Assembly (NCBI GenBank): GCA_043732185.1
Contig: JAYTHY010000025.1
Coordinates: 1 to 15,393, forward strand
Reading direction: 5' to 3'
Origin: Fibrobacteria bacterium
Lineage (GTDB): Bacteria; Fibrobacterota; Fibrobacteria; UBA11236
Length of the DNA stretch: 15,393 nucleotides
Position 1 is the first letter of the stretch. The number at the start of each line of letters is the position of its first letter. Below, piece after piece: positions 23 to 15,392 of the stretch. Both the position numbers and the translations under genes were made by a program. The notes under the pieces are model-generated. The model ran no database searches and had not been told where the DNA came from. It worked only from the letters and a program-made list of their open reading frames with translations.

Positions 23-99
<77 letters not shown>

Positions 100-104
100 T
101 TTTC

Positions 105-140
105 AAAGCACCTAGGGAGACCTAGGTGCTTTTTTTATTT
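105..140 (+). terminator. Rho-independent terminator, probably bidirectional
   Basis: Perfect 12-bp inverted repeat AAAGCACCTAGG (105-116) / CCTAGGTGCTTT (121-132) with a GAGA GNRA loop and a T-rich tail on +. It sits between the tRNA and the stop codon (135-137) of the convergent gene; the minus-strand U-tract is weaker (TTTG). Confidence 0.9.
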
Positions 141-2105
141 CCGGTCCAATTGGCTCATGGCTTCAGGTTGCGTCAGGTATTTCCCATTTATTCTGATTGA
201 TTTGCGGATATACTTTGGCCTTCCTTTGCTCTCTTCCAGAATTTTGCCCAGGTATTCACCCAATATGGATAGGCTCAAAAGATTTATCCCTCCGAAAAAA
301 AGGATGAGGACAATAATGGTAGTGATTCCATGGGGAATTTCCGGCATCAGAATTTTCGAAATAATCCCGAATACAATCGCCAGAAAGGAAATCAGGGTTA
401 ATACCAATCCTGCGTAACTCAGAATTTCCAAAGGCACAAAGGTAAAGCTGAAGATCCCTTTTTTAGCCCACCAAATATTTTTTCGCCAGTTATTGGTGGA
501 TACGCCGAACATGCGTTCCGGTCGGTAGAAGTTTACGCCGGTTTGTTTAAAACCCACCCAGGCGCGCAATCCGCGTAGAAACTGTTCTTTTTCAGGCAAG
601 GCAAGAATGTGTGTGATGACTTTTCGATCCAAAAAAGAAAAATCACCGGCATCCAATGGAATAGTTATGTTCGACAGATTTTTGAACAGCCGGTAGAACT
701 GATGATAAAACCAAATAAGAATGCGGTTTCCCTCGCGTTTATCCCGCACGCCATAGATGACTTCATACCCAAGCTTCCATTGCTGGTAAAACTGGGGAAT
801 GGTTTCTGGCGTGTCTTGTAAATCTCCTTCCAGCCAAATGACCGCGTCTCCAGTAGCAATGCTGGAGCCACTGATTAAGGCTGCCTGAGAGCCGAAATTT
901 CGGGAGTGTTCGATGGCGATCACATGCGAATCTTGCGCGGTGATTTGTTCCAGCACCTCATTCGAATTATCGGGACTGCCATCATTGACAAAGATGATTT
1001 CATAATTCACGCCCAAATCAGTAAACATTTTAGTTAAGCGAGTGTACATGAAGGGTATCGCCTGGCCATCTTTGTAACAGGCGATGACGGCTGACAATTT
1101 TTCCGTTTTTTGCGCAGGAGCAGGAACAAAATCCTTCAGCCATTGTAGCTGTTTTGCCAGACCCTCTTGTAAGAGCGTTTCGGCCTGCCAGTGCAAAGCA
1201 GTTTTCGCCAGGGATGCGTTCCCGTACCAGTCCTTTGAATCCCAGTTGCGATTGGGCATGGTCCCCCAAGTGGGATCGCCGGGTATGGCACATAAATCTT
1301 TTACTGCATCGACTACCTCTTTGAGGGTCGTCTTTATGCCGGAAGCAATATTGATACTGGCGCCTCGGTATTTTTCCATTCCATGAGTCGCGGCTAGAAT
1401 AGTTGCGGCAACGGCATCGTCGATATAAACATAATCATGGGACACTTCTGGGTTAACTAGCGGCGGGTATTGCTTGTTTAGGCCTTTGTTTAAGAGTACC
1501 GGGAACAGTTTTTCCGGGGATTCATAGGGGCCATAAATGGAATAGTAGCGTAAATGGATCACTGGAAGTGTTTTCACTTCACCCAAATACTGGATGTAAT
1601 AGGCTGCCGCAATCTTACTCACGGCATAATCGCTATTGGGTCTTAGCGCATCTGTTTCCAACGGGGCTTGGCTATTCAAGCCGTATTCCGAAGAGGAGCC
1701 GCCTTGGACAAAGGCTGTGAACTTAAACTTTTCGGCAACACCAATGAGATTCACCAATCCCAGCACATTCGTTTGGTAGATCAACTCAGGGTCTTTTTGA
1801 AATTCGAAAGCGCCATACGTGGACAAATTGAAAATGGTACTGAACGAATGCAGGCCGAAAATTTTTTCCAAGGAAGGTTTATCGGTAACATCCGCATGCA
1901 CTATTTTATCCGGACGGATATCGTGAATCCGATAGGGGACACCTGTTTGATGCGTGACGGCGAAACAATCTTCCCGATGAACGGAAATGGCACGGAATAA
2001 ATTGGAGCCAATAAACCCCCCAGCTCCGAAAACGGCGATGGGTCCTTTTAGCTTGGCAATTTCATCGGCTATTCGATAAGCAGGTTTCCTATGGAAGTCG
2101 TTCAC
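135..2105 (-). CDS. Fusion: N-terminal NAD(P)-dependent nucleotide-sugar epimerase/reductase (extended SDR) plus C-terminal GT2 GtrB/ArnC-like polyprenol-phosphate glycosyltransferase with two transmembrane helices
   Basis: N-half has GAGGFIGS (GxxGxxG), GSSSEYG, YAVSK (YxxxK) and YSIYGP. After a PAPAQK linker the C-half has YEIIFVNDGSPD, SRNFGSQAA, EGDLQDTPE, AGDF, FLRGLRAWVGF, two hydrophobic helices and GEYLGKILEESKGRPKYI, typical of the GtrB family. The GTG start overlaps the upstream TGA (GTGA). Confidence 0.9.
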   Translation of the reverse strand: MNDFHRKPAYRIADEIAKLKGPIAVFGAGGFIGSNLFRAISVHREDCFAVTHQTGVPYRIHDIRPDKIVHADVTDKPSLEKIFGLHSFSTIFNLSTYGAFEFQKDPELIYQTNVLGLVNLIGVAEKFKFTAFVQGGSSSEYGLNSQAPLETDALRPNSDYAVSKIAAAYYIQYLGEVKTLPVIHLRYYSIYGPYESPEKLFPVLLNKGLNKQYPPLVNPEVSHDYVYIDDAVAATILAATHGMEKYRGASINIASGIKTTLKEVVDAVKDLCAIPGDPTWGTMPNRNWDSKDWYGNASLAKTALHWQAETLLQEGLAKQLQWLKDFVPAPAQKTEKLSAVIACYKDGQAIPFMYTRLTKMFTDLGVNYEIIFVNDGSPDNSNEVLEQITAQDSHVIAIEHSRNFGSQAALISGSSIATGDAVIWLEGDLQDTPETIPQFYQQWKLGYEVIYGVRDKREGNRILIWFYHQFYRLFKNLSNITIPLDAGDFSFLDRKVITHILALPEKEQFLRGLRAWVGFKQTGVNFYRPERMFGVSTNNWRKNIWWAKKGIFSFTFVPLEILSYAGLVLTLISFLAIVFGIISKILMPEIPHGITTIIVLILFFGGINLLSLSILGEYLGKILEESKGRPKYIRKSIRINGKYLTQPEAMSQLDRK

Positions 2106-3838
2106 GTGGATTCCATTCCGGCCGGTTTGACAAAGGGTTCCATTTCCGTAATGGGATTCCCGTAACTCATTTTGGGGTACACGTTGGTATGTGGGTCAAT
2201 CATGACTTGCAATAAAAATGGTTCGTCTACATTTTCCCACATTTTTTTGAGCCCTGTCTCTACATCCTTATTGTCTTTTATTGTAAACGAATGGATGGTA
2301 TAGGCTTTGGCTATGGCTTCAAAATCGGGAGCGCTATACCCCCAAAATGTGCTTTGGTATCGACTTTGAAAGTAGGTGTCTTGAAATTGACGGATCATAC
2401 CCAAACAACGGTTGTTCAGCACCACCATTTTAATTGGCAACTTATTTCTCACTACGGTTTGCAGCTCCTGGATATTGAGCTGAAATCCACCGTCACCTGC
2501 TAGGACAACCAAGGGCGTTTTTTTATTGGCCAGACAAACGCCAATCGCAGCAGGTAAGGCAAAGCCCATGGCTCCCATACCACCCGAGGTCACAAAGGTT
2601 TGCGAGCCTGATAATTCTAGGGATTGCGCCGCCCACATTTGATGGCTGCCCACATCTGCCAAGTAACCTTTGGCCCGTAAAGACACCTTGGCCAGTTGAT
2701 GGATGAATATGTTTGGATTTATGCCTTGGATTCGATTCTTTAACTCGTCCGTATCCAGCCATTTTAATTTCAATTCGGAAAGTTCATCCAGCCATGGTTG
2801 ATAGGAATTAGGAGCAATTTTATCATGGATAAAAAAGTCATTCGCCGCAACTAGGAAATCTTGAAGGTCGGCCTGTACCGCTTCGCACCCGTCTAGGCGA
2901 TTGTTGATTTCCCCTGCCTCGCAGTCAACATGGTAAATAGTTCGGGAACCTTTAAAATCTTTGGTATTGACTCCCGTTTGGCGGATATCCAAGCGACTTC
3001 CTAGGACAAGGATCAAATCGCTTTGACCGATAGCCATGTTGGCCCAACGATTGCCATAACTACCGATGAAGCCGATGCGCTGGGGGTGATTGTATTCAAG
3101 CACATCCAAACCCAGTAGGGACGTTACGACCGGAATGCAAGTGGATTCCACCAAGGATTTGAAGAGATCCACGCAGTCGCCAGCTCTGACGCCTCGGCCC
3201 GCCAGTATTAATGGTCTACGGCTTTTTAATAAGGCAGCCTGCAATTTTGAAAAAAAGGTCGTACTTAACGGAGTGATGGTCTTTTTAAGGCGGTGCAGGA
3301 CCAGAATTTCACCGGGATCAACTTCTGCTCTTTGCATATCCATGGGAATGTCAATGAGCACCGGTCCAGGACGGCCGCTTATAGCCAAGGTGTAGGCTTC
3401 CGCCATAACCGTCGGCAACTGGTCGACGGAGGTGATGCGGTAGGCCTTTTTTACAATTGGAGTGGCCATGGCCACGATATCCGTTTCCTGAAAACCCAAT
3501 TGACGGATGTCTTTTTGGCCGCGCTGTTCGTTGGGATTCACCTGACCGGTTATAAACAAGCCCGGCGAAGAATCGAAATAGCAACTGCCAATTCCGGTCA
3601 GTAAATTCGTGGCTCCGGGGCCACTTGTGGCCAGGGCTATACCAGGTTTATTTGAAATTCTTCCATAGCCATCGGCTGCAAAAGCGGCACCCTGTTCGTG
3701 GTGCATGGTGATAATTTCAATTCCTTTGATTTCAGCGATGGAATCGAGGATATGGGTAATCATACCCCCGGACAGCTCAAATACATGGGTGATCCCTTGG
3801 GTTTTTAGAAAGGCGGCAATAAAGGCGGAAGCCTTCAT
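2102..3838 (-). CDS. ThDP-dependent acetolactate-synthase-like carboligase, YerE-like (branched-chain sugar synthesis)
   Basis: MHHEQGAAFAADG (catalytic Glu), TSGPGATN, GRPGPVLIDIP, LGSRLDIRQTG and the ThDP motif GDGG...NN. It is embedded between two nucleotide-sugar genes with no ilvN/ilvH small subunit beside it. The N-terminus MKAS...FELSGGMITHILDSI resembles Yersinia YerE as I recall it (not aligned). Fold is certain; the YerE function is inferred. Confidence 0.85.
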   Translation of the reverse strand: MKASAFIAAFLKTQGITHVFELSGGMITHILDSIAEIKGIEIITMHHEQGAAFAADGYGRISNKPGIALATSGPGATNLLTGIGSCYFDSSPGLFITGQVNPNEQRGQKDIRQLGFQETDIVAMATPIVKKAYRITSVDQLPTVMAEAYTLAISGRPGPVLIDIPMDMQRAEVDPGEILVLHRLKKTITPLSTTFFSKLQAALLKSRRPLILAGRGVRAGDCVDLFKSLVESTCIPVVTSLLGLDVLEYNHPQRIGFIGSYGNRWANMAIGQSDLILVLGSRLDIRQTGVNTKDFKGSRTIYHVDCEAGEINNRLDGCEAVQADLQDFLVAANDFFIHDKIAPNSYQPWLDELSELKLKWLDTDELKNRIQGINPNIFIHQLAKVSLRAKGYLADVGSHQMWAAQSLELSGSQTFVTSGGMGAMGFALPAAIGVCLANKKTPLVVLAGDGGFQLNIQELQTVVRNKLPIKMVVLNNRCLGMIRQFQDTYFQSRYQSTFWGYSAPDFEAIAKAYTIHSFTIKDNKDVETGLKKMWENVDEPFLLQVMIDPHTNVYPKMSYGNPITEMEPFVKPAGMEST

Positions 3839-3840
3839 GA

Positions 3841-5151
3841 TTATTTATCGGCCCACTTTTGCAGGACGGATTCAATGTATGCAAAGGTATCGTCGGTATA
3901 ATGCGGGGCGGCGCCGATGAAGAAAACTTCTTCAATCACACGATTGGCATTGGGATATTTTTTATAATCATCCAAAAATTTGTACGCGGGGTGTTGCAGT
4001 ATATTTCCGGCAAAATAATTTCTCGTTTGAATCCGATTGGCTTCCAAAAATTGCACTAAATCGCCTTTCAAATTTTTATTGGCACAAATAAATGGGGTGC
4101 CAAACCAGGATGTATGCGCCTTTTCACGCTCTTTTAAAGTTCGAATGCCCGGTACAAATTTTTCAAAAAGCGCGTCCAAGGATTTTTTACTGTTTCTTCT
4201 TTTTTTGTGAATGTCATCGTACTTAGCTAGTTGAGCTAAGCCAATCGCACCTTGCAAATCCAGAGGCTTGAGGTTGTATCCCATTTCCGTGAAGAAATAT
4301 TTGTGGTCGATAATTGCATCGCTGCCTTCCATCCATTTGTCAAAACGGTTTCCGCACGTTCCGCAGGGTAAGATATTCGCTGCGCCCACGCAGTAGCAAT
4401 CTCGTCCCCACCAGGCGATTTTTCGGGCCGTTTTAATGAGATCTTTATTTTGAGAGGAAACCATTCCCCCTTCTCCGGTGGTAATGTGGTGGGCAGGATA
4501 AAAGGAACAGGAGCTCGCGACACTAAAATCGGTAAGCAATTGATTGTCCCAACGGCTCCCTAAACTGTCACAATTATCCAGGATAAGTTTAATATTGTGT
4601 TTGTTGCAGATGGAGAGAATCGTATCCATGTCCGGCGCATTGCCTAAGACAGGCGAAACGACAATACCTTTCGTTCTTGCTGTGATTTTCCCTTCTAGCA
4701 AGGTTAAATCAAAATTTAAATCGTCCATGGTGATGTCGATGAACACAGGTACCAAACGATTTTGATAGATAGGGGCAATGGTAGTAGGAAATCCAACAGG
4801 AGAAACAATCAACTCATCGCCATCATTCCATTTGAAATAGCTTTTCAAAGCGGCAAACATGACAAGGTTTGCCGAACTTCCTGAGTTGACCATCAGAGAA
4901 TCGGCATGATTGAATTTTTGGGAGAACTGCCCTTCAAACCGATGGATATGCTCGCCGGCCGAAAGCCATTTACCGGTCAGGATTGCCGAAAACATGCCAA
5001 TGACTTCTTCATTATCCCAATAAGGACCGGAGTAATAGACCCAATCTTTTTCGGTGTCGAATTTTCTGTCTTTATTGTAAACGAACTTGAAAACCTGGTT
5101 TTCTTTGGCCACATCCTTGATAAGCTGGGTGATTTGATCTTTCACAGGCAT
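3841..5151 (-). CDS. rfbH: NDP-4-keto-6-deoxyglucose 3-dehydratase (RfbH/DdhC/AscC, E1-type; DegT/DnrJ/EryC1/StrS fold)
   Basis: VNSGSSANL, DNCDSLG and SFYPAHHITTGEGG, with His in place of the Schiff-base Lys of the aminotransferases. It has the E1 iron-sulfur signature WGRDCYC...CGTC...DHKY...GYNLK, and QTRNYFAGNILQHPAY near the C-terminus. Confidence 0.88.
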   Translation of the reverse strand: MPVKDQITQLIKDVAKENQVFKFVYNKDRKFDTEKDWVYYSGPYWDNEEVIGMFSAILTGKWLSAGEHIHRFEGQFSQKFNHADSLMVNSGSSANLVMFAALKSYFKWNDGDELIVSPVGFPTTIAPIYQNRLVPVFIDITMDDLNFDLTLLEGKITARTKGIVVSPVLGNAPDMDTILSICNKHNIKLILDNCDSLGSRWDNQLLTDFSVASSCSFYPAHHITTGEGGMVSSQNKDLIKTARKIAWWGRDCYCVGAANILPCGTCGNRFDKWMEGSDAIIDHKYFFTEMGYNLKPLDLQGAIGLAQLAKYDDIHKKRRNSKKSLDALFEKFVPGIRTLKEREKAHTSWFGTPFICANKNLKGDLVQFLEANRIQTRNYFAGNILQHPAYKFLDDYKKYPNANRVIEEVFFIGAAPHYTDDTFAYIESVLQKWADK

Positions 5152-5265: not shown

Positions 5266-7230
5266 TTAGGGATGTACCCCAAGTCCGCCTAATGCCTGGC
5301 TGAGACCCAATCGGGCTTCTTCCAGTTGCGGATCAATGGTCAATGCGCGGGAATAGAAGTTGATTGCGTCAGGCACATTTCCTTGTAACTGGGCGCGCTT
5401 CCCTAATTCCAAGAGAGACCGAGCCTCCTCTGATTGGCCATGATGCTTCCGAAGCGACGCCAATTTAGCGTTGGCTTCCATATCGGTGGGATCGATTTGC
5501 AATATTTTCATGAATTCAATCTCAGCCGCTTGATTGGAATCCAAACGGAGCAATGCCGCGGCCAAATATTGATGCGAGAGAAGATTATTACTGTCCAAAC
5601 GAATCGCCCTGCGGTAGTGCAAAAGGGCTTCTTGGCCTTGACCATGACGCTCTCGGGCTGCGCCCACAAAAAGTGAACTCCAGATGGCTTCCAGGCCCTC
5701 GGAGTCTACCGTCAAAGCTCTTTCTGCAATGCGCGCAGCATCTTCATGTTTGCCCGCCCAGTTGATCACTTTAGCCAGGTTGTGCAGTCCCTCGCCTCGT
5801 TCATGAGAGCCCATGGTTGCCAAAACTTTATTCGTAACTGTTTTTACTTGGGTATCTCCAAAGTCCGGAGCTTTTTTAACCACACCGAGGGCTGCCAGTT
5901 TATCAAGGATGGAAAGGGCTATCAGTTGATAATTTTCTATGGAAAGATGTACATGATCCACAAAGTTCGGTTCACCCAGAATATCATTTCCGGAATCGCG
6001 AACAGTCTTTTCCTCCAAGATTCGTGTAATGTCGACTGCCTGAGCGGCGTGTTCCCGTGCTACTTTCAAAACGATGTCTCGCATGGCGGGAAGCGCGCGC
6101 AAAGGACAAATATCCTCGTCTAACGCTCGTCGAAAGTGCTGTTTGGCTTCCTGGTTCTGGTGAGAACTCCAGGCGGCTTGTCCTGCCGCGTATGCGATTG
6201 AGGCGTTTCTACCATCGAGGGAGAGGGCGGAATCGAAATACATCAGGGCTTGATCTGGTCTATCGGCTAAGGCTAAAGCATGAGCCTGGGACAGCCATGC
6301 TGTCACTTTGTTTTGCATTTCGGGCGTTAATCCCGGGGTCGCTTCGCTTTTAAATGGAGAACAGTCTTTTTCATTTCCAGGGGTAGTCATAAAAATAACT
6401 TCGGCACCCACGGAATGCGCCAATTCCGCCATGCGACCCAAAGAAATCTGGTAATGTTCCAAAATGTTCTGTCGCAAGGTGTCATCACGTCGGTAAGAGG
6501 TGGGGCCGATGGTATTGGCCAGTATATCGTTCACTTCCCCTTCAAGCCTGTAGCCATTCGTCTTGACGGCAGATTTTTCTTGCGATGAACTAGATGGATT
6601 CTTCTGGCTTTGGACAGAGCGAATCAGTCTTTTTAATGCCGAGTAAGTGCGGGTATGATCGAGCCGGGCGCTCAAATTGCGGATGAAAGCAGGAATGCCG
6701 ACTGTTTTACGGTAGGTGCGTTCTTCCAAGAATTCATTGTGGCCGCTGTAGACTAGAAAAAGATCCGGTTGATACTGGATCAATTCAGCGATGAGTACGG
6801 CTTCCCGATAACTCGCGTAACTGATGCCACCGGCATTGATGACTTCCCAAGGATGGCGGTTATCCGCCGCAGGAAGGAGTTCACGCAGCCAGCCACTAAA
6901 GGAAACGGGATCACGCCAAGGATGTCCATAGGCCGTTGAGCCGCCGACGCTAAAAATGCGGTAGGTGCCGGGAGCTTTTTTGCGCGGAAATTTCTGTGCA
7001 TTAAAATGCGTTAACTTGACCGGATTTGTGACCATGAAAATTTGGCCATCCGGCTCAGTTTCCTCAACAAATAGAGGCTGAGAATTGGAATATCCCACAT
7101 AGGGGTCTTCGGTGAGTGCCAGGGGCTGAACGCCTGCCATCCAAAGTACGCCTTCGCATAAAAGAAAAAATAGGGTCGGAGCTACAACGGCCAGTCCTAA
7201 ATTTCCTAAAAGGTTGCTCTTGATCCGCAT
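5266..7230 (-). CDS. Membrane-anchored SGNH/GDSL-hydrolase-like protein with TPR repeats
   Basis: N-terminal hydrophobic helix (LGLAVVAPTLFFLLCEGVLWMAGV). SGNH blocks are FSVGGSTAYG (I), VINAGGISY (II), YSGHNE (III) and FVDHVH (V). TPR-like helical pairs lie between blocks III and V and across the C-terminal region (e.g. ALLHYRRAIRLDSNN, AINFYSRALTIDPQ). Confidence 0.8.
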   Translation of the reverse strand: MRIKSNLLGNLGLAVVAPTLFFLLCEGVLWMAGVQPLALTEDPYVGYSNSQPLFVEETEPDGQIFMVTNPVKLTHFNAQKFPRKKAPGTYRIFSVGGSTAYGHPWRDPVSFSGWLRELLPAADNRHPWEVINAGGISYASYREAVLIAELIQYQPDLFLVYSGHNEFLEERTYRKTVGIPAFIRNLSARLDHTRTYSALKRLIRSVQSQKNPSSSSQEKSAVKTNGYRLEGEVNDILANTIGPTSYRRDDTLRQNILEHYQISLGRMAELAHSVGAEVIFMTTPGNEKDCSPFKSEATPGLTPEMQNKVTAWLSQAHALALADRPDQALMYFDSALSLDGRNASIAYAAGQAAWSSHQNQEAKQHFRRALDEDICPLRALPAMRDIVLKVAREHAAQAVDITRILEEKTVRDSGNDILGEPNFVDHVHLSIENYQLIALSILDKLAALGVVKKAPDFGDTQVKTVTNKVLATMGSHERGEGLHNLAKVINWAGKHEDAARIAERALTVDSEGLEAIWSSLFVGAARERHGQGQEALLHYRRAIRLDSNNLLSHQYLAAALLRLDSNQAAEIEFMKILQIDPTDMEANAKLASLRKHHGQSEEARSLLELGKRAQLQGNVPDAINFYSRALTIDPQLEEARLGLSQALGGLGVHP

Positions 7231-7297: not shown

Positions 7298-7849
7298 ATG
7301 GAAGTACAGCAAACGGCATTAGACGGTGTTTTAATATTACGGCCGCGAATTTTTAAAGACGGCCGCGGATGGTTTCAAGAATCCTATAATAGGGATGCGT
7401 TCTTGGCTGCGGGAATTACCGAGACCTTTGTGCAAGACAATCATAGTCGGTCCGTCCAACACACCTTACGAGGCCTACATTTTCAAACGCAACCTGGGCA
7501 GGCCAAATTAATTCGGTGTAGCTTAGGCAGAATTTGGGATGTGGCCGTAGATATTCGCCCGCAATCGCGCACCTATGGTGAGTTCTTTGGCATGGAAATT
7601 TCGGCTGAGGATGCCGTGCAAATCTTGATTCCGGTGGGATTCGCGCATGGGTTTATGGTTCTATCCGAATGGGCGGAAGTGCAGTACAAATGTTCCAATG
7701 TATACAATGGGGCAACCGAATCAGGTATCCAATGGGATGATGCAGAATTGAAGGTGGCGTGGCCATTGGGCTCCGCGTTGCCGCTGTTATCGGAGCGGGA
7801 CAAGAAAAATCCAAGTTTTGCCGAACATCGAGCGAAACTCGTCTCTTAA
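7298..7849 (+). CDS. rfbC: dTDP-4-dehydrorhamnose 3,5-epimerase (RmlC/RfbC cupin family)
   Basis: FKDGRGWFQESYN, FVQDNHSRS, TLRGLHFQ, QAKLIRC, DVAVDIR, IPVGFAHGF, YKC and LSERD are all conserved RmlC segments. Confidence 0.93.
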   Translation: MEVQQTALDGVLILRPRIFKDGRGWFQESYNRDAFLAAGITETFVQDNHSRSVQHTLRGLHFQTQPGQAKLIRCSLGRIWDVAVDIRPQSRTYGEFFGMEISAEDAVQILIPVGFAHGFMVLSEWAEVQYKCSNVYNGATESGIQWDDAELKVAWPLGSALPLLSERDKKNPSFAEHRAKLVS

Positions 7850-8743: not shown

Positions 8744-10054
8744 ATGAAAAAGGTTCCAGTTTTCACTTCGATTTATCTCATCACCTGCCTTTTCTTATCC
8801 GAAGGATGTCTTTTCTCCCAACGCGAAGAAATAAGTAACCGCCCGGATGGAATTGCTGGCAGCGCGGAAGCCCGGTTAGTATTGGCTCCGGCCGCATTAG
8901 TACGTGGCGACCTACGGGCACCGGCAATCTTGGACTCAGTGCATATACGCATTACTGGGGAAGATATGGTACCCCTTGAGTTTGCTTATTCCGGTGATTC
9001 TCTAGCGTGTGTATTACAAAATCTACCTGCAGGACCCGTTCGTGTTGTCACGGCTGAGCTGTTCCGGGCCGGCCGATTGCTCTATTTGGGGCAAGGAACC
9101 TTTGCGTTCAAGCGAGAGGCACGCGTACAAATTGTGTTGCGTTGTGACCCACAATTCTCAAGGGTAACATCGCAGTTTCATCTACCCATTGGAATGCCCG
9201 TGCCAATTGCCGATGGCATGCTCCACTTGGTTGGCAAAGCCGGTGCCTATACTGCAAAGCTCTCTAAACATGGAGAATTCGGAAGCTTCACCGTCGATGA
9301 AATTCCTGGAGGCGTGAGTTATGATGTCGACCTGGCACTTGCCGACAGTTCCGGGAAAACCCGGTACGAGGCAAAACGGACTTCGGTTTTTCTTCCTCTT
9401 GGGGAAGAGGCCAAGTGGGATTTGTCCCTGTTGCCGACGGAAGCGCAGGCGGGCGTGGCCCTAAATTTGGAGCCCACTAAAGTCACTCAGTTTTCGGTAA
9501 AATTTCCGTCCCTTAAACGATCGCCACAGCAATGGGGTGAAATTGTGATCAGTGAGTTTTATGCCGCGCCGTCTACGGCGGATTCCGGATCGGAAGGAGA
9601 ATGGTTTGAATTGTTCAACCGAACCGGCGACAGCCTGTCCCTGGCGGGTTGCCGCATGTCCCGTGACCATGGCGGGGGTGTCAGCCGTTCGTTGCCCCTC
9701 GATTCGAGCCTTGTACTGGCTCCCGGTCAAGCGATGGTCTTTGGGCGTTCCGCCGCTTTGGCGGACGCACACTACCTTGATTTCAGTCTTGTAAATACCT
9801 CGGCAACTTTAATTTTGTTTAGCAAGAACGATGCTCTCCCTTTAGATTCGATTCGCTATGCATCCACAACTGCGGATAGTCTTGCGTTGCAACCACCACT
9901 TCCCATCAAGGAAGGAATGGTAACGAGTCTAGATGCGGATTCACTGGGGAAACGGGCCTCAGTGCTAAGCTGGTGCCTGTTGAAACAGAAGACGTCGGCT
10001 TCAGGGCTTGGCGTCTACGCATCACCGGGAAGTTTGGAAAGCTGCCCAAATTAA
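8744..10054 (+). CDS. Exported, probably lipid-anchored protein with two N-terminal beta-sandwich repeats and a C-terminal lamin tail domain (LTD)
   Basis: MKK plus hydrophobic stretch ending FLSEG-C22 (non-canonical lipobox). The LTD signature GEIVISEFYAAP...EWFELFNRTGDSLSLAGCRM starts near residue 265, with a terminal ASPG motif. A strong SD precedes it. Confidence 0.75.
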   Translation: MKKVPVFTSIYLITCLFLSEGCLFSQREEISNRPDGIAGSAEARLVLAPAALVRGDLRAPAILDSVHIRITGEDMVPLEFAYSGDSLACVLQNLPAGPVRVVTAELFRAGRLLYLGQGTFAFKREARVQIVLRCDPQFSRVTSQFHLPIGMPVPIADGMLHLVGKAGAYTAKLSKHGEFGSFTVDEIPGGVSYDVDLALADSSGKTRYEAKRTSVFLPLGEEAKWDLSLLPTEAQAGVALNLEPTKVTQFSVKFPSLKRSPQQWGEIVISEFYAAPSTADSGSEGEWFELFNRTGDSLSLAGCRMSRDHGGGVSRSLPLDSSLVLAPGQAMVFGRSAALADAHYLDFSLVNTSATLILFSKNDALPLDSIRYASTTADSLALQPPLPIKEGMVTSLDADSLGKRASVLSWCLLKQKTSASGLGVYASPGSLESCPN

Positions 10055-10087
10055 TCCAGTGTGCAGGCTTACCTTTGTATGACAGTC

Positions 10088-10891
10088 CTAGTCGCTATTA
10101 GGCACCGAAACGGGTGCGAACATAAGGCCTTTTTTGAAAAACCCAAAAGAAAATCCAACTACACCATAGCAAAGCAACATGGCTGCCAGGTATTCCGGAA
10201 AAAGCATGCCAAAGCCACAGCTGTAGCCGACAAGAATATTGATGATTTGCAAAAAATTGAAAAACTTATGTTCGCGACGCACCAATTTAGGCAGATAAAG
10301 CGGGCTAATCATAAGGATACCCGTCAAGATCAATAAAAGCGGCAAGGCAGCCATGAATCCCGGAAATTTCCAAGCCAATTGGTATTTGGAATAAAGGATG
10401 ACGCTTAAGGCCATGAATCCACCTGCAAAGGTGGTAGGAAGCCCATGAAAATAGTTGACCAGCTCTTCGGAGTCGACGGCATTGTACCTAGCCAAGCGCA
10501 TGGAGGCTCCCAGTACATAGACGGAAAGAGAGACCAACATCAATGGTCGATGTCCGGCAAACCAGGCGTAGTCAACGGTTTGTATGTAATAATATACGAG
10601 GAGTGCTGGGGCGACGCCAAAAGCGACCAAATCCGCCAGGCTATCGAATTGAGCGCCGAAATCGGAAGATGCTTTTAGAATCCGGGCGGCAAAACCATCC
10701 AATTTATCTAAAAGCACGCACCAGATTATCATCCAAGCCGCCAATAAAAGTGGGGCCTTGGTAAATCCCAATATGGGTTGTCCGGAGTTGGGACTGGAAA
10801 AAGTTTCATGCATGACAAGAATGGAGTACATGCCAAGCAGGAAATTTAAACCTGTAAAGAGATTTGGAATTAGGAAACGCTTTTTGACCAT
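10088..10891 (-). CDS. pssA: CDP-alcohol phosphatidyltransferase, phosphatidylserine synthase-like (membrane, type II)
   Basis: IPNLFTGLN, the family motif DKLDGFAAR-x8-GAQFDSLAD followed by FGVAP, then RLARYN and FHGLP, with multiple TM helices. Substrate (serine versus another alcohol) is not proven. Confidence 0.8.
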   Translation of the reverse strand: MVKKRFLIPNLFTGLNFLLGMYSILVMHETFSSPNSGQPILGFTKAPLLLAAWMIIWCVLLDKLDGFAARILKASSDFGAQFDSLADLVAFGVAPALLVYYYIQTVDYAWFAGHRPLMLVSLSVYVLGASMRLARYNAVDSEELVNYFHGLPTTFAGGFMALSVILYSKYQLAWKFPGFMAALPLLLILTGILMISPLYLPKLVRREHKFFNFLQIINILVGYSCGFGMLFPEYLAAMLLCYGVVGFSFGFFKKGLMFAPVSVPNSD

Positions 10892-10991
10892 GCTGCCTTG
10901 CTTTGCTTTAAAATCTTGTAAAGGGCTTTAATTTACTAGAACTGTACCTAATAATTAAATAATTCCGGAGGGTATGTAATGGAAAATCGAG

Positions 10992-13574
10992 TCACGATGG
11001 AAAGGTTAGGATAAAGTTGTCCAGAGTGCCGATAAAAATTGAATTTCCAAACATGACTGGGCTGCCGGGTAAATCCGGCAATTTATACTTGAGCAAAAGT
11101 TCATGGTTGAAATTCCTTTTTTCCAAGGCGGGTTCGGTGGTCCCAATCCAATAACCATGGTCGAAGACTGTTGGTCGATTAAATAGGTAGGACTGGATAC
11201 GTACTTGGGACAGCAAAGCGCCGGTTGCCGCCTGCAGACAAATGAGCTTCTTGGAGGCCGTAGTGAGCACTAAGGTATTGTCACGGTTACCGGAAAGACT
11301 GAAGATCTGCTCGCCAAAATCAACTGTCCAGGCAATGGATTGTCGTGCCCGATCAATACAGATTAGGGTGCCCTGGTTATAACCGGCGTAAATGAAATCT
11401 TTGTTGGAAAAGGTTTCGGTAATGGTACCGGGTGCTAAGGGTAGGCTCCAAATGACTTTTCCGGATGAGGGACTTATAGCGAAATATTTTCCTTCCAAAT
11501 CAATGATGTCTAATAATTCGGAATATTTTGACTTCCCTACCAGGAGCCCACTTTGCCCTAATTTTTTTTCCCAACGTAATGTCCGGTCGGGAAATCCGAC
11601 CATGTTCAGGCCGCCGTACCAATCGCTATAGACAAGGCCTCCGGTGACAGCCTGGGCTTGGCATACCGGATTCTTTAGGGGAATTTGGCCTAATCCACCT
11701 TTACTCAGGACTGGTGGAATAAAGTAAAGTCGGGAGGGGCTACTTACGCAAATGGTATCGTTCTTCCAAACGCTCACCTTCATATCGAGTTCTTCTGAAA
11801 AGTGAAAGGAGTTAACTAACTCCCCTGATTCATGGTTCAAAAGGACTAAAGTCTGATTGTCGTTTTCGAGGTAAAAAGAATTTTCCTTATGGGGCACCAA
11901 GGTGGGATAAAATTTTGGACCGAATTGACGCTTCCACGCCCACGTGGCTCCAAGGCCAATTGCCATGTTTTTAAGTGTAGGCCCACTCGACCAGTTTGGT
12001 GTTTGCATGGAGCGCGAAACCTCAATAAGCGCCTGAACCTGTTCTTGATGTGTACCACCCATATTTTTAAGCACAGCCGCACGCGATTTCCAGGCTTCAC
12101 CATTACCTGGCTCAAGTGTCAAAACATGACTTAACGCACTAAGTGCCCCTTTCCAGTCTTTTTGCAATTCTTTGTCATGGTACTCCCGAAATTTAAAACT
12201 ATCGGCATTTCCAGAAATGGATAGGAGTTCACGATTTAACTTAAGAGAACGCCCGTCACCATAATGCAGAACCAACCATTCTTCATTAGGCAATAACATC
12301 GGTTCACGGTCCCATCCATATTCATGTGTCCAAAGTGTTCGGCCATGGAGGTCCAGACAAACCGCAGTTTGCGCGAATGTCGTAGCAAAAAGGACGCCGT
12401 CAAACGCAGCCATCTGACTGACCAGTAAATCGTGTTGCCATTCAAGTTGCCCAGTTTCAAGTTTAAGGGATTTAACTACGCCTTTTGCATTGACCAAATA
12501 GACACGATTATTACCAAGGACTATTTTCTCTTGCAAAGGACTGGTCATTTCCCATTTTACAGTTTCAAATCCGGAACCATTTCGAATTTCAAACCGGTCG
12601 ATGTAACGGACAATTACAAATTCAGATTCCCATGCAACGCTAAGGACTTTACTTTTAATTCCACCAATGGGGTAGATGGATTTTTTTTGGACATCGACTT
12701 GATAAATGTGGTTCTCGGCACATTGAAGTAGCCCTTTCACGGATTTTTCAGGCTTGGCAATCCAGACACAGCCATCTTGGTCAAGTGGTGTCACCCAGTA
12801 TGGCTGGCCCTGTCGGTAGTAGCGTAATGTACTCGGGGTTATTAGTAGAATAGAACCGGGTTCATTAGCCAGAATTGCGCCGGCTTCTGTAGGTTCCTGA
12901 ATTTGGAGATTCCAATTTTTTCCACCCTGTAAGGGTCTCAAGGAAATTTTATGGGTGGAAGGATCGTTGAATAGACATTGATTTCCCTCTACGTCTAAAA
13001 TTTCTTCACCCTCTTCGAGGTGAAAGTTTAAACTTACCAAATCTCCGTTTACATCTTGTAATAAAAGCTGCTTGGACCGATTCAATTGCCCGTCTGGTGG
13101 ACCCCGGTACTCCAACGCATATGTAGATTGTCCGTTGGTCTGGAAAGGGAAGACTTTGGAGGGTCCGGTATTCTGTTGGGCGCCTTCCACAATTGGAGTG
13201 ACCGACGAGGGGTTGAGATTTGAAAGGTGTCGGTACAACTTAATTTTTTCTCCCCTAGGCAGACCCTTGCGAAGCAAAGCGAAAGAATATGCAGCCAGGG
13301 CTGAATCCCGTTTATTTATTTGTTCATAAATGCATCCCAGTAAGTAACTGGCTTGGCTTTTGATCGCCTCATTTTTGGATTGGGCAAAAAGACTTTCTAA
13401 TCGGTGCTTTGCGCCATCATAGTCGCCTTCAATTCGGTACAGGTAACGCGCCGCCTCAACCGCATATTGTTCCGTACTAAAATGCGTGTCCCGTTCTCCA
13501 GCACTCGAAGGGATCGATTGTGATAGAAGAATGGCAAGCAATACGATTCCCCGGGTTTGCAACGAACGATTCAT
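10992..13574 (-). CDS. Exported TPR plus PQQ-like (BamB-type) beta-propeller repeat protein
   Basis: Signal-peptide-like N-terminus (GIVLLAILLSQSIPSSA). TPR-like segments ASYLLGCIYEQ...ALAAYSFAL and ALSALSHVLTLEPGNGEAW. Repeated Trp-docking blade motifs LETGQLEW, LHGRTLW, SSGKVIW, RQSIAW, QAATGALL. ATG overlaps the regulator's TGA (ATGA). Confidence 0.8.
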   Translation of the reverse strand: MNRSLQTRGIVLLAILLSQSIPSSAGERDTHFSTEQYAVEAARYLYRIEGDYDGAKHRLESLFAQSKNEAIKSQASYLLGCIYEQINKRDSALAAYSFALLRKGLPRGEKIKLYRHLSNLNPSSVTPIVEGAQQNTGPSKVFPFQTNGQSTYALEYRGPPDGQLNRSKQLLLQDVNGDLVSLNFHLEEGEEILDVEGNQCLFNDPSTHKISLRPLQGGKNWNLQIQEPTEAGAILANEPGSILLITPSTLRYYRQGQPYWVTPLDQDGCVWIAKPEKSVKGLLQCAENHIYQVDVQKKSIYPIGGIKSKVLSVAWESEFVIVRYIDRFEIRNGSGFETVKWEMTSPLQEKIVLGNNRVYLVNAKGVVKSLKLETGQLEWQHDLLVSQMAAFDGVLFATTFAQTAVCLDLHGRTLWTHEYGWDREPMLLPNEEWLVLHYGDGRSLKLNRELLSISGNADSFKFREYHDKELQKDWKGALSALSHVLTLEPGNGEAWKSRAAVLKNMGGTHQEQVQALIEVSRSMQTPNWSSGPTLKNMAIGLGATWAWKRQFGPKFYPTLVPHKENSFYLENDNQTLVLLNHESGELVNSFHFSEELDMKVSVWKNDTICVSSPSRLYFIPPVLSKGGLGQIPLKNPVCQAQAVTGGLVYSDWYGGLNMVGFPDRTLRWEKKLGQSGLLVGKSKYSELLDIIDLEGKYFAISPSSGKVIWSLPLAPGTITETFSNKDFIYAGYNQGTLICIDRARQSIAWTVDFGEQIFSLSGNRDNTLVLTTASKKLICLQAATGALLSQVRIQSYLFNRPTVFDHGYWIGTTEPALEKRNFNHELLLKYKLPDLPGSPVMFGNSIFIGTLDNFILTFPS

Positions 13575-14287
13575 TCGGGTGTGGCCTCGGGAGGATCAAA
13601 TTTATACCCAACGCCACGTACGCTTTTGATAACTGTTGGGTTTTCCGTGTCTATTTCGATTTTTTGGCGGAGTTTTACAATCTGATTGTCTACAGTGCGG
13701 GTGGTGGGCATATTTTCCAGTGAGTAACCCCAAATGGCCTGCAAGAGATCTTCGCGCGTTACCACTTCGCCTTTTCGAGTTGAAAAATATTTTAGAATTT
13801 GGAACTCTTTGGCAGAAAGTTCCATTGGCATTTTGGATTTAAATGCTTCGTACCTTTTAAAATCAATCCGGATGTCATCGAATTCCAGCACTTCATGGGG
13901 CCCACTGCCGGGCGCTTTATCGTGTTCTACCCTCCGCAGCATACTCTTAATCCGGGCCATCAGTTCAAAAACACTGAAGGGTTTCGTCACATAGTCGTCG
14001 GCACCCATTTCCAAGCCCTGGATTTTGTTGATTTCTTCGGTTTTAGCAGTCAGCATAAGGATGAAAATTTGCGGAAAAGTTTTCCGAATATACCGGCAAA
14101 CATCATAACCACTTACTTTCGGCAACATCAAATCCAGGATAACCAGATGAGGCTGACGCTGTCGTACCATATCCATGGCTTGTTCCCCGTCTACGGCGAC
14201 TTCGATGGTATAGCCTTCAATTTCCAGTAAATCCACCAATCCTAATCGGATGGCATCTTCATCTTCGACAATTAAAATCCTATGCAT
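13571..14287 (-). CDS. OmpR/PhoB-family response regulator (receiver plus winged helix)
   Basis: LIVEDE, LDLMLP (phospho-Asp), MLTAK, GADDYVTKPF and the C-terminal RTVDNQIVKLRQKIE...SVRGVGYKF. Confidence 0.96.
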   Translation of the reverse strand: MHRILIVEDEDAIRLGLVDLLEIEGYTIEVAVDGEQAMDMVRQRQPHLVILDLMLPKVSGYDVCRYIRKTFPQIFILMLTAKTEEINKIQGLEMGADDYVTKPFSVFELMARIKSMLRRVEHDKAPGSGPHEVLEFDDIRIDFKRYEAFKSKMPMELSAKEFQILKYFSTRKGEVVTREDLLQAIWGYSLENMPTTRTVDNQIVKLRQKIEIDTENPTVIKSVRGVGYKFDPPEATPE

Positions 14288-15392
14288 GCTGAGCCTTTGG
14301 AAAGGTGATGATCATCTCAGTGCCTTCGTTCAATTTGCTATTCACCTTTACTTGGGCTTTATGCGAATCGAGAATTTGTTTTACAATAGCCAAACCTAAG
14401 CCACTCCCTTTGGTTTTACGGGTCATCTCATCACCGGCCCTATAAAATTTGTCAAAAATTCGTTTTATATCCAAACTGGAAATACCAATACCTTCATCCT
14501 TGACACGCAAGACAGCCCTGTCCATAAAATTTTCAACATACACAGTCACTGTTGTGTTAGGTTTTGAATATTTCAAAGAGTTTTCTAGCAGATTCTGGGC
14601 AACGGATCTTAGGGAGTCGTAATCCCCGAGTATGTTGTTTGCCGGTTCCAGCTTCAGGACAAGTTTGATCCCAGCCTTCTCAAAAGTGTCTGCCATAAGT
14701 CCGGCGACTTCTTGAATAGGATGGGAAAGGTCTAATGACGAAAAATTGAGCTTGGCCCGTTTTCCTTCCAGCTTGGTGAAATTAAGTATGCCCTCAATCA
14801 TTTTGTGAAGGCGCATCGATTCCTCACCGATTAAGTGGGCATATTGTTTCTGTTTGATCTCTTGCGTTTGCCTTCCACTTTCCAATATTTCCGCGAACAT
14901 GCGAATTGCCGTCAGTGGCGTTTTCAATTCATGCGAGACTGCAGAAAGAAAATTTGATTTCATCAGGACCATGTGTCTTTCGTTTTTAAGACTTTTGAAT
15001 ACGGAAAAAGATCCTAGTAAGAGCGCCGCCATGGAGAATCCCAGCAAAGTATAAAGTAGCGTCAGCTTACGCCTTCCCAGGGCAATGACTTCGCTGTCCT
15101 TCTTTTTGTAAATAATGAGTTTCCAAGCCGGTAACTCACCTGTTAAGGCCGTTTCCAGGGCCACCTTCCTATCTTCTAACGAATCGGACTTCATGACGAT
15201 ATGATCTTGTTGATTGACCAAAGCAAAGTCCATGTCTTTCCAGGCACTTTTCTTAGACTGGAGAATTTCTCCTTGGATGGCCTCGATGAATACGGATTCA
15301 TTCAGTCGAGCGATGATGCGAGTTTCTTTATCCAACCAGGGGTAGCCGATTATTAAGTAGGGGGCACCTTCTAAATATTCCATCTGGATGGG
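14280..15392 (-). CDS. Membrane sensor histidine kinase (HisKA plus HATPase_c), 5'-truncated by the window edge
   Basis: One TM helix, then H-box SHELKTPLTAI, N-box NLLENSLKYS, DEGIGI, IFDKFYR and GSGLGLAIV. The frame is open from the Met at 15383 to the window end and no first TM helix is visible, so the true start is probably upstream. It overlaps the regulator start by 8 nt. Confidence 0.93.
   Translation of the reverse strand, partial: PIQMEYLEGAPYLIIGYPWLDKETRIIARLNESVFIEAIQGEILQSKKSAWKDMDFALVNQQDHIVMKSDSLEDRKVALETALTGELPAWKLIIYKKKDSEVIALGRRKLTLLYTLLGFSMAALLLGSFSVFKSLKNERHMVLMKSNFLSAVSHELKTPLTAIRMFAEILESGRQTQEIKQKQYAHLIGEESMRLHKMIEGILNFTKLEGKRAKLNFSSLDLSHPIQEVAGLMADTFEKAGIKLVLKLEPANNILGDYDSLRSVAQNLLENSLKYSKPNTTVTVYVENFMDRAVLRVKDEGIGISSLDIKRIFDKFYRAGDEMTRKTKGSGLGLAIVKQILDSHKAQVKVNSKLNEGTEMIITFPKAQHA

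Follow-up and report, generated by a model that had tools for sequence, protein, structure and literature searches.

A YerE-like carboligase in the transketolase position of a GtrB-fusion cassette: a candidate route to a lipid-linked branched deoxy sugar in a Fibrobacteria genome

To our knowledge, yersiniose-type branched sugars have been described solely in nucleotide-linked form, as substrates that cytoplasmic transferases use for O-antigen assembly, and lipid-monophosphate carriers are known for only a few simple sugars, namely glucose, mannose, N-acetylglucosamine, 4-amino-4-deoxyarabinose (Ara4N), galactosamine and arabinose. YerE-like enzymes are treated as the sugar-branching enzymes of lipopolysaccharide (LPS) in the part of a review on which we draw (PMC12247030), and the YerE/YerF scheme, as given in excerpts of that review and of a second source, consists of acyl transfer to cytidine diphosphate (CDP)-4-keto-3,6-dideoxyglucose followed by NAD(P)H-dependent reduction (PMC12247030, PMC9306805). 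The same part of the review describes two-carbon transfer to a keto sugar, dependent on thiamine diphosphate (ThDP) and yielding a tertiary alcohol, as proposed for miharamycin and amipurimycin and for the AviB1/AviB2 type in avilamycin-like antibiotics, and there assigns sugar branching of the transketolase type only to antibiotic pathways (PMC12247030). Here we analyse a stretch of 15,393 bases from a Fibrobacteria bacterium (the window), which is the entire contig C25 of a genome of 4.46 Mb in 139 contigs, and in it a three-gene operon encoding an E1-type 3-dehydratase (E1 below), a ThDP-dependent carboligase and a short-chain dehydrogenase/reductase (SDR) fused to a family 2 glycosyltransferase (GT2). 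The operon is a rare variant of a widespread uncharacterised cassette, with a YerE-type carboligase in the slot of a transketolase. We favour, with modest confidence, the idea that its products would make a C4-branched 3-deoxy sugar and load it on polyprenyl phosphate.

An earlier, sequence-only reading of this DNA had described three joined genes with a 2-nt gap, a GTGA overlap and the domain content given above, and the list of open reading frames, the sequence itself and domain scans bear out all of these. Between the TAA that ends the E1 gene and the ATG that opens the ThDP gene stand only the two bases TC (gap at 3839-3840), and the stop of the ThDP gene (...ACG TGA) is overlapped by the GTG start of the fusion gene as GTGA (2105-2102); no in-frame ATG was found after this GTG in the stretch read, which extends to 2040. 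A hairpin of 12 pairs (6 G-C) with a loop of 4 and a T-run lies 3 nt past the fusion stop at 135, and since this terminator and a convergent tRNA-Met gene follow the fusion gene, the operon ends with it. With the 2-nt gap, the overlap and the terminator directly after them, the three genes are translationally coupled. Full-length homologues number from hundreds to thousands for each of them, and the arrangement recurs in other genomes, so that they are real genes and not chance open reading frames.

The ThDP enzyme contains TPP_enzyme_N, M and C, and AGDGGFQLN...VVLNN is visible in the alignment. Its score on TIGR00118 (460 bits) lies under the cut-off of 538, and it stays below every equivalog cut-off for acetohydroxyacid synthase (AHAS), whereas the IlvB of the same genome reaches 776 bits on TIGR00118 and has IlvN alongside on contig C111. 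The best match in the PDB is 5ahk (440 bits, versus 296 bits for Escherichia coli AHAS I), presumably the YerE homologue of Pseudomonas protegens (PpYerE). Identity is 58-60% to the ThDP enzymes inside cassettes of the order E3-RfbF-RfbG-SDR-x-RfbH and 35% to the genome's own IlvB, and, like the cassette enzymes, the window enzyme contains an insertion of 6 residues and reads RQFQ at the site of RQWQ in IlvB. Judged against these cassette-embedded enzymes, the ThDP enzyme is YerE-like and not a housekeeping acetolactate synthase; the sub-cut-off score, the low identity to IlvB, the insertion and the W-to-F exchange set it apart, as had been claimed. Membership of this family suggests that it performs carboligation onto a nucleoside diphosphate (NDP)-4-keto sugar.

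In the fusion protein, Epimerase/GDP_Man_Dehyd matches cover residues 23-318, and the Glycos_transf_2, PgfS and ArnC models cover 332-636. The description of the GT2 half as GtrB-like holds over nearly the whole chain of Synechocystis GtrB (5ekp): residues 333-634 match 24-326 of 341 with 227 bits, and the alignment reaches the C-terminal membrane region (GT-A domain, juxtamembrane segment and two transmembrane helices). ArnC structures match residues 333-638 with 123-132 bits, and the NCBIfam models for PgfS and ArnC score 223 and 146 bits, both under their equivalog cut-offs. In the SDR domain, whose AlphaFold model has a predicted local distance difference test score of 93.4, the columns of the S-Y-K triad (S138, Y160 and K164) are invariant. 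Foldseek returned a mixture of nucleotide-sugar 4-epimerases, 4,6-dehydratases, decarboxylases and 4-ketoreductases, which does not discriminate the reaction. In the motif GSSSEYG the Asp/Glu pair expected of a 4,6-dehydratase is missing. There is no acid where beta-2 ends (AVTHQ), R59 is invariant and T51 nearly so. By the motif a 4,6-dehydratase is unlikely, and R59, T51 and the missing beta-2 acid presumably hint at NADP(H) use of the ketoreductase kind.

The fusion has thousands of full-length relatives, for which we fetched 80 genome loci and 80 metagenome loci and clustered the neighbours (below, L followed by a number denotes a fetched locus, G000 the genome of the window, and G002 and G008 its congeners). 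At most fusion loci a split transketolase, encoded as N- and C-terminal halves, lies directly upstream. Among the informative loci, that is, fused loci with at least 2 kb upstream, both halves were directly upstream in 49 of 51 from genomes and 51 of 53 from metagenomes (100/104 overall), and a YerE-like enzyme and E1 took their place in one of the 104 (L022), besides the window. In the genome set, both halves also accompany 19 of the 24 relatives whose GT2 is not fused, and a methyltransferase lies downstream of the fusion at 38 of 50 and at 46 of 55 loci in the two sets. When metagenomes were scanned with an alignment of the close subfamily as query, the matches listed were all of transketolase type, at no more than 58% identity. 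Of the operon as the sequence-only reading pictured it, the coupling of a branching enzyme to the fusion stands, but the fusion belongs to a huge transketolase-linked family, which changes what the operon is.

The relation between the two types of fusion is consistent with a change of partner. In a tree of 75 fusion sequences (quick IQ-TREE run, support by the Shimodaira-Hasegawa-like approximate likelihood ratio test, SH-aLRT, and midpoint root), the 25 window-type rows (P0001-P0024 and L022) form one clade (SH-aLRT 100, stem 0.4), which is sister to a transketolase-linked clade of the Chitinophagaceae type (99) and nested in the transketolase-linked fusions of Bacteroidota. A single nested clade fits one switch from transketolase to YerE. 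The window's fusion is 51% identical in its SDR half and 65% in its GT2 half to the transketolase-linked L020. When 24 fusions of the YerE type are compared with 48 of the transketolase type, only eight columns are fixed differently: the SDR domain has four (96, 100, 134 and 135), beside the catalytic GSSSEYG, and the GT2 domain the other four (410, 414, 424 and 426, including D426E), in or just before the DXD motif. Substitutions at both active sites would be expected if both domains handle the product of the ThDP enzyme, a changed sugar, and both sites seem to have been adapted when that enzyme changed.

The first enzyme of the operon belongs to the DegT_DnrJ_EryC1 family (237.6 bits), and among solved structures it is best matched by Yersinia pseudotuberculosis E1 (3bcx), with 244 bits versus 155 bits for ColD. 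Its YPAHHIT aligns with the YPAHHIT of Yersinia E1, in which a His (H220 in E1) stands in place of the Schiff-base Lys, and this His is conserved in all seven aligned sequences in place of the Lys that binds pyridoxal phosphate. The cysteines aligned with C193, C251, C253 and C261 of Yersinia E1, which we take to be the [2Fe-2S] ligands (numbering counted from the alignment), are all present, and a 4-residue insertion typical of the window's clade lies in the loop between the third and the fourth. The gene is therefore predicted to encode an E1-type NDP-4-keto-sugar 3-dehydratase that uses pyridoxamine phosphate (PMP) and a [2Fe-2S] cluster. Homologues of the window type number 4386 proteins at E<=1e-100. 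Next to the E1-like loci of G032 and G040 (L103 and L104), no RfbF, RfbG, E3, GT2 or ThDP neighbours were detected, and these loci, considered as a clue to the substrate, yielded none.

The trio recurs elsewhere, a point on which the earlier proposal depended. It is complete in an uncultured Bacteroidia genome (L022, genome G208), with identities of 69% for the fusion, 73% for the ThDP enzyme and 79% for E1. In G002 and G008, E1 and the ThDP enzyme are present at 97-99% on contigs that break inside the ThDP gene, and G008 has the C-terminal half of the fusion at a contig end (98% identity). On fourteen metagenome contigs, paired through identical longest-contig sizes, a close homologue of the fusion (65-76%) occurs together with one of the ThDP enzyme (68-78%). 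Judged from such matched sizes, the conserved core would be the ThDP-fusion pair, with E1 accompanying a subset. A fourth arrangement of the same parts was observed in Verrucomicrobiae (L077, 6885-12234), which has an E1-like protein (50% identical to that of the window), TK-N and TK-C as the transketolase halves, a stand-alone GtrB-like GT2 and a separate SDR; the window-type dehydratase clade therefore also feeds a transketolase. Among the 208 species genomes of the window's class, a close ThDP homologue was found only in G000 and G002, and E1 at 97-100% identity was found in 3 of 15 genomes of the genus (the negatives include the unpublished G011). Because of this patchy distribution and the position inside a Bacteroidota clade, the cassette probably reached the genus from Bacteroidota by horizontal transfer.

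A link between yersiniose-type synthesis and GtrB-like enzymes also appears outside the fusion family. A YerE-like enzyme is encoded in 4 genomes of a Bacteroidia sample of 401, and in one Bacteroidia order (L240-L264) in 26 of 401. The cassette is remarkably uniform within this order, since 20 of the 26 have its six genes arranged as E3-RfbF-RfbG-SDR-YerE-RfbH, and sugars of the yersiniose type may be common there. At two Bacteroidia loci, L198 (5537-15433) and L199 (4022-13960), the canonical cassette is followed, directly after RfbH, by a stand-alone GtrB/PgfS-like GT2. At L198 this GT2 is followed by GtrA, a 533-aa polytopic protein and then genes of the legionaminic/pseudaminic type, and at L199 a PMT_2 glycosyltransferase of the GT-C type is encoded on the other strand, some 0.5 kb upstream of the cassette.

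Taken together, these data suggest the following route. An NDP-4-keto sugar would come from outside the operon, most likely CDP-4-keto-6-deoxy-D-glucose made by RfbF and RfbG. The E1-type PMP/Fe-S enzyme, with its catalytic residues conserved, would strip the C3 hydroxyl, after which the YerE-like enzyme, acting as its family does, would put an acyl unit derived from a 2-oxoacid on the C4 ketone (acetyl, if the donor is pyruvate). The SDR domain would then reduce a carbonyl, most likely the side-chain ketone; this is the weakest step of the scheme. Finally, the fused domain, if it acts as its homologue GtrB does, would move the finished sugar to undecaprenyl phosphate (Und-P), and we speculate that the lipid-linked sugar then serves, outside the cytoplasm, as donor for a GT-C enzyme whose gene lies elsewhere.

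Several observations weigh against this scheme. E1 scores 359 bits on the RfbH equivalog NF011936, under the cut-off of 423, while the RfbH proteins of canonical cassettes score 696-700 bits; it is 34-38% identical to the latter and 50-79% to L077, L103 and L022. By these measures it is a member of a large divergent sister clade of canonical RfbH, so that the proposed E1-type 3-dehydratase keeps the His and the four cysteines and loses the close tie to cassette RfbH. A homologue of the PaaE-type E3 was not found in G000, G002 or G008 with the E3 of L198 as query, nor in the window's genome by tblastn. By the matching of longest-contig sizes, a close E1 (at least 69%) goes with only 4 of 26 close ThDP homologues and with 2 of the 14 ThDP-fusion contigs; C3 deoxygenation may therefore be an add-on rather than a core step. 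The structures closest to the SDR domain are NAD-retaining 4-epimerases. The domain is 19-24% identical to the SDRs of the cassettes at L197, L198 and L199, compared with 51% to transketolase-linked fusions, and by these identities is not orthologous to the SDR of canonical YerE cassettes; likeness to YerF, which the sequence-only reading had proposed, is thus a functional guess and not orthology. In the window-type subfamily a Glu replaces the first Asp of the DXD motif (E426-G-D428, LEGDLQD), where the transketolase-linked relatives have LDGDLQD, and Glu426 may still bind metal.

Other points of this kind concern the final steps. The genome, 100% complete by marker genes, gave no match to GtrA (PF04138), the operon contains no GT-C gene, and PMT_2 matches in the genome lie only on C49 and C95. 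A search of the genome with the 533-aa protein of L198, GtrA, the PMT_2 protein of L199, E3 and RfbG found none of them beyond weak SDR paralogues. Partners of this kind do occur at L198, L199 and L022. At L022 an 885-aa polytopic protein with a C-terminal Laminin_G_3 domain (11967-14624) directly follows the fusion, and at L124 a homologue with 48% identity (9952-12600) is encoded some 1 kb past a fusion of the transketolase type, on its downstream side. This protein, whose membrane part has no Pfam match, is a candidate periplasmic transferase; it has no homologue in the window's genome, and of the other 159 loci only 5 have one in the neighbourhood of the fusion. Finally, a GtrB-like enzyme follows the canonical cassette in only 2 of 28 cases (1 of 26 in the order sampled), so that the combination of a branched-sugar route with Gtr-type loading, although independently supported by the comparison with L198 and L199, is rare, and ordinary transferases of the cytoplasm clearly receive most sugars of the yersiniose type.

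The alternative that survives best, although we regard it as unlikely, is that the SDR is an entry enzyme, either an NAD-retaining 4-oxidase or a decarboxylase resembling the C-terminal domain of ArnA or UXS, that creates the NDP-4-keto sugar. E1 and YerE would then act on its product, no CDP-glucose 4,6-dehydratase would be needed, and the bound NADH may later reduce the branch, giving a redox-neutral route. The transketolase-type cassettes have no conserved 4,6-dehydratase (a GDP_Man_Dehyd-type SDR cluster is present at only 17 of 80 loci), and therefore something in the four-gene set must create the ketone. The alternative also draws on the divergence of E1, on the nearest sequences and structures of the SDR, which are those of 4-epimerases and decarboxylases, and on the absence of RfbG and E3 from the assembly. 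Arguing in the other direction, the SDR is without the beta-2 acid usual in NAD-retaining epimerases, has R59 and T51, presumably as in NADPH-dependent ketoreductases, and is without the Asp/Glu pair.

The supply of substrate bears on the same choice. Two copies of rfbF above cut-off are present, at C90:1-723 (-) and C122:20424-21140 (+). They are about 94% alike, and each breaks off at residue ~240 where its contig ends, the two ends having sequence in common. RfbG above cut-off was not found in the assembly, which counts against the scheme set out above. RfbF and RfbG are both above cut-off in all three other trio genomes, in G208 on the contig of the trio itself at a distance of about 10.6 kb, which speaks for the scheme and against the entry-enzyme alternative. 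In G008 (C506) the order is GT2-rfbF-rfbG-C-methyltransferase-3,5-epimerase-SDR, and contig C122 of the window's genome ends GT4-GT2-rfbF; from G008:C506 we infer that rfbG probably lies in an assembly gap. The order in G008 suggests, as a separate matter, that a pathway for a CDP-linked C-methyl deoxyhexose is hidden in that gap. The contig of the trio in G208 also carries, adjoining rfbF-rfbG and about 12.6 kb from the trio, a second module (L212:4208-7812) of a stand-alone PgfS/GtrB-like GT2 (227 bits), a GalE-like SDR and a PMT_2 GT-C.

A second alternative, which we consider quite improbable, is that the neighbours work independently, E1 and YerE making a sugar for a cytoplasmic glycosyltransferase and the fusion loading an unrelated common sugar on Und-P. 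It would account for the 26 of 28 canonical cassettes that have no GtrB-like enzyme within 7 kb, for an SDR domain that is no orthologue of the cassette SDR, and for the fusion relatives that work without YerE in about 100 loci. It would leave the operon without a reductase for the acyl branch and without a transferase for the CDP-sugar, however, and it sits poorly with the GTGA start/stop overlap in an operon that has no other gene, with the pairing of ThDP enzyme and fusion on 14 contigs, with YerE in the exact slot that another ThDP enzyme fills in 100 of 104 loci, and with the class-specific substitutions at both active sites of the fusion. That the ThDP enzyme is an AHAS isozyme of branched-chain amino acid or acetoin metabolism placed here by chance we reject as exceedingly improbable: its top NCBIfam matches are acetolactate synthase models and its relatives are often annotated as such, but it scores under every AHAS cut-off, no small subunit adjoins it, the genome already has a true IlvB with adjacent IlvN, and identity (35% versus 58-60%), insertion and W-to-F exchange all place it with the cassette enzymes.

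Coordinates of the operon and of the features that bound it are collected in Table 1.

Table 1. Features of the operon and its borders in the window
Feature	Position	Strand	Remarks
E1-type 3-dehydratase, divergent 'type B' clade	3841..5151	-	436 aa, ATG start
YerE-like ThDP-dependent carboligase (decarboxylase superfamily, AHAS-related)	2102..3838	-	578 aa, ATG start
SDR-GT2 fusion gene	135..2105	-	656 aa, GTG start
Extended-SDR domain of fusion, residues 1-330	1116..2105	-	Epimerase and GDP_Man_Dehyd Pfam matches
GtrB/ArnC/PgfS-like GT2 domain and C-terminal membrane part, residues 331-656	135..1115	-	GtrB match
Hairpin, 12-bp stem, flanking A and T runs	105..132	.	operon end
tRNA-Met (CAT)	23..99	+	ARAGORN; convergent with operon, marks boundary
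Membrane-anchored GDSL/SGNH-hydrolase and tetratricopeptide repeat (TPR) protein	5266..7230	-	Pfam Lipase_GDSL(_2) and many TPR families

At the other border, the GDSL/TPR protein (654 aa, with a hydrophobic N-terminus and a long TPR array) is encoded 114 nt upstream of E1. Its gene is kept in that position in G002 and G008 (90-92%) and is absent from L022, and a weak promoter-like site lies between it and E1 at 5264-5235. It may be co-transcribed with the operon, but it is outside the conserved core. The protein may be a glycan O-acyl esterase or transferase. Divergent from this gene is one for an RmlC-type dTDP-4-dehydrorhamnose 3,5-epimerase (7298-7849, +; 221 bits against an equivalog cut-off of 156), with no further rml genes within the window. 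Farther along, 8744-10054 encodes a lamin-tail-domain protein and 10088-10891 a PssA-like CDP-alcohol phosphatidyltransferase. At 10992-15383 (-) the genes of a response regulator (OmpR/PhoB type) and of a histidine kinase resembling PhoR lie directly upstream of that for an 860-aa protein with TPR and a PQQ/BamB-like beta-propeller, the stop and start codons of these genes overlapping. The first ~100 bases of C25 recur at the end of contig C59, which probably precedes it. The genes at that end of C59 have no connection with glycan synthesis and encode a ChaN-like haem-binding protein, YchF, a bifunctional nuclease and some unknown proteins.

The operon may also say something about the family to which its fusion belongs. 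We tentatively suggest, with rather less assurance than for the operon itself, that there is a general, undescribed route in more than 10 phyla, in which an NDP-4-keto sugar would be branched at carbon by a ThDP enzyme, tailored by an SDR, loaded on polyprenyl phosphate by a fused GtrB domain and transferred in the periplasm, and so brought to the cell surface. The ThDP enzyme of this route would usually be a split transketolase, and in the lineage of the window a YerE-type enzyme with E1. If so, the window would be a 'Rosetta' case, since the chemistry of the YerE family is known and would assign that of the whole fusion family. The SDR-GtrB fusion with a split transketolase is among the commoner uncharacterised envelope cassettes, with thousands of proteins in many phyla, and a YerE-type enzyme in the transketolase slot gives a hypothesis that can be tested across the family, namely that a keto sugar is branched at carbon by ThDP chemistry before lipid loading. 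A lipid-linked branched deoxy sugar would be a new class of donor for periplasmic glycosylation. Branching of the transketolase type in primary envelope biogenesis would be new as well, as far as the part of the review cited above goes, which names antibiotic pathways only (PMC12247030). The literature that we searched, which did not include Krug et al. 2024, yielded nothing relevant on lipid-linked yersiniose or on a link between transketolase and GtrB. That study (Angew. Chem. e202403535) is reportedly an in-silico survey with more than 200 YerE-like clusters, and it may bear on novelty.

Compared with the known systems, the operon appears to combine two known kinds, branching of the YerE type and lipid loading of the Gtr type, and what seems new is YerE in place of a transketolase. 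The cassette of transketolase and SDR-GtrB (with or without a methyltransferase) has the same fusion of about 640-660 aa with a ThDP enzyme directly upstream. The window differs from it in that its ThDP enzyme is a single chain of the YerE type and not a two-subunit transketolase, that an E1 dehydratase is added and the downstream methyltransferase missing, and that the fusion has the eight class-specific substitutions at its two active sites. With the pathway to CDP-yersiniose A (Y. pseudotuberculosis O:6; DdhA-D/E1/E3, YerE and YerF) it shares an E1-type dehydratase and a YerE-like carboligase, followed by an SDR; ErwE, JanthE, PpYerE and MMAR_2332 are the YerE-like enzymes compared. Unlike that pathway, the operon is without RfbF, RfbG and E3, its E1 is divergent and under the RfbH cut-off, its SDR, joined to a membrane GT2 in one chain, is not orthologous to that of the cassettes (19-24%), and it presumably yields a sugar on polyprenyl monophosphate where the pathway yields a CDP-sugar for cytoplasmic transferases. 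The GT2 can be aligned with those of the Gtr system (GtrA/GtrB/GtrC), of Ara4N transfer (ArnC) and of PgfS/PgfE in Streptococcus mutans, and PgfE/PgfS and ArnA/ArnC offer parallels to its pairing with an SDR. In contrast to these systems, SDR and transferase form a single polypeptide, the predicted donor is a C-branched deoxy sugar and not glucose, formylated Ara4N (Ara4FN) or a common hexose, the genome is without GtrA and an adjacent GT-C, and the DXD motif reads EGD. Finally, branching of the kind proposed for miharamycin and amipurimycin, and that of avilamycin-like antibiotics, serves specialised metabolites on nucleotide or nucleoside sugars and involves no lipid carrier, unlike the route that we propose for the window.

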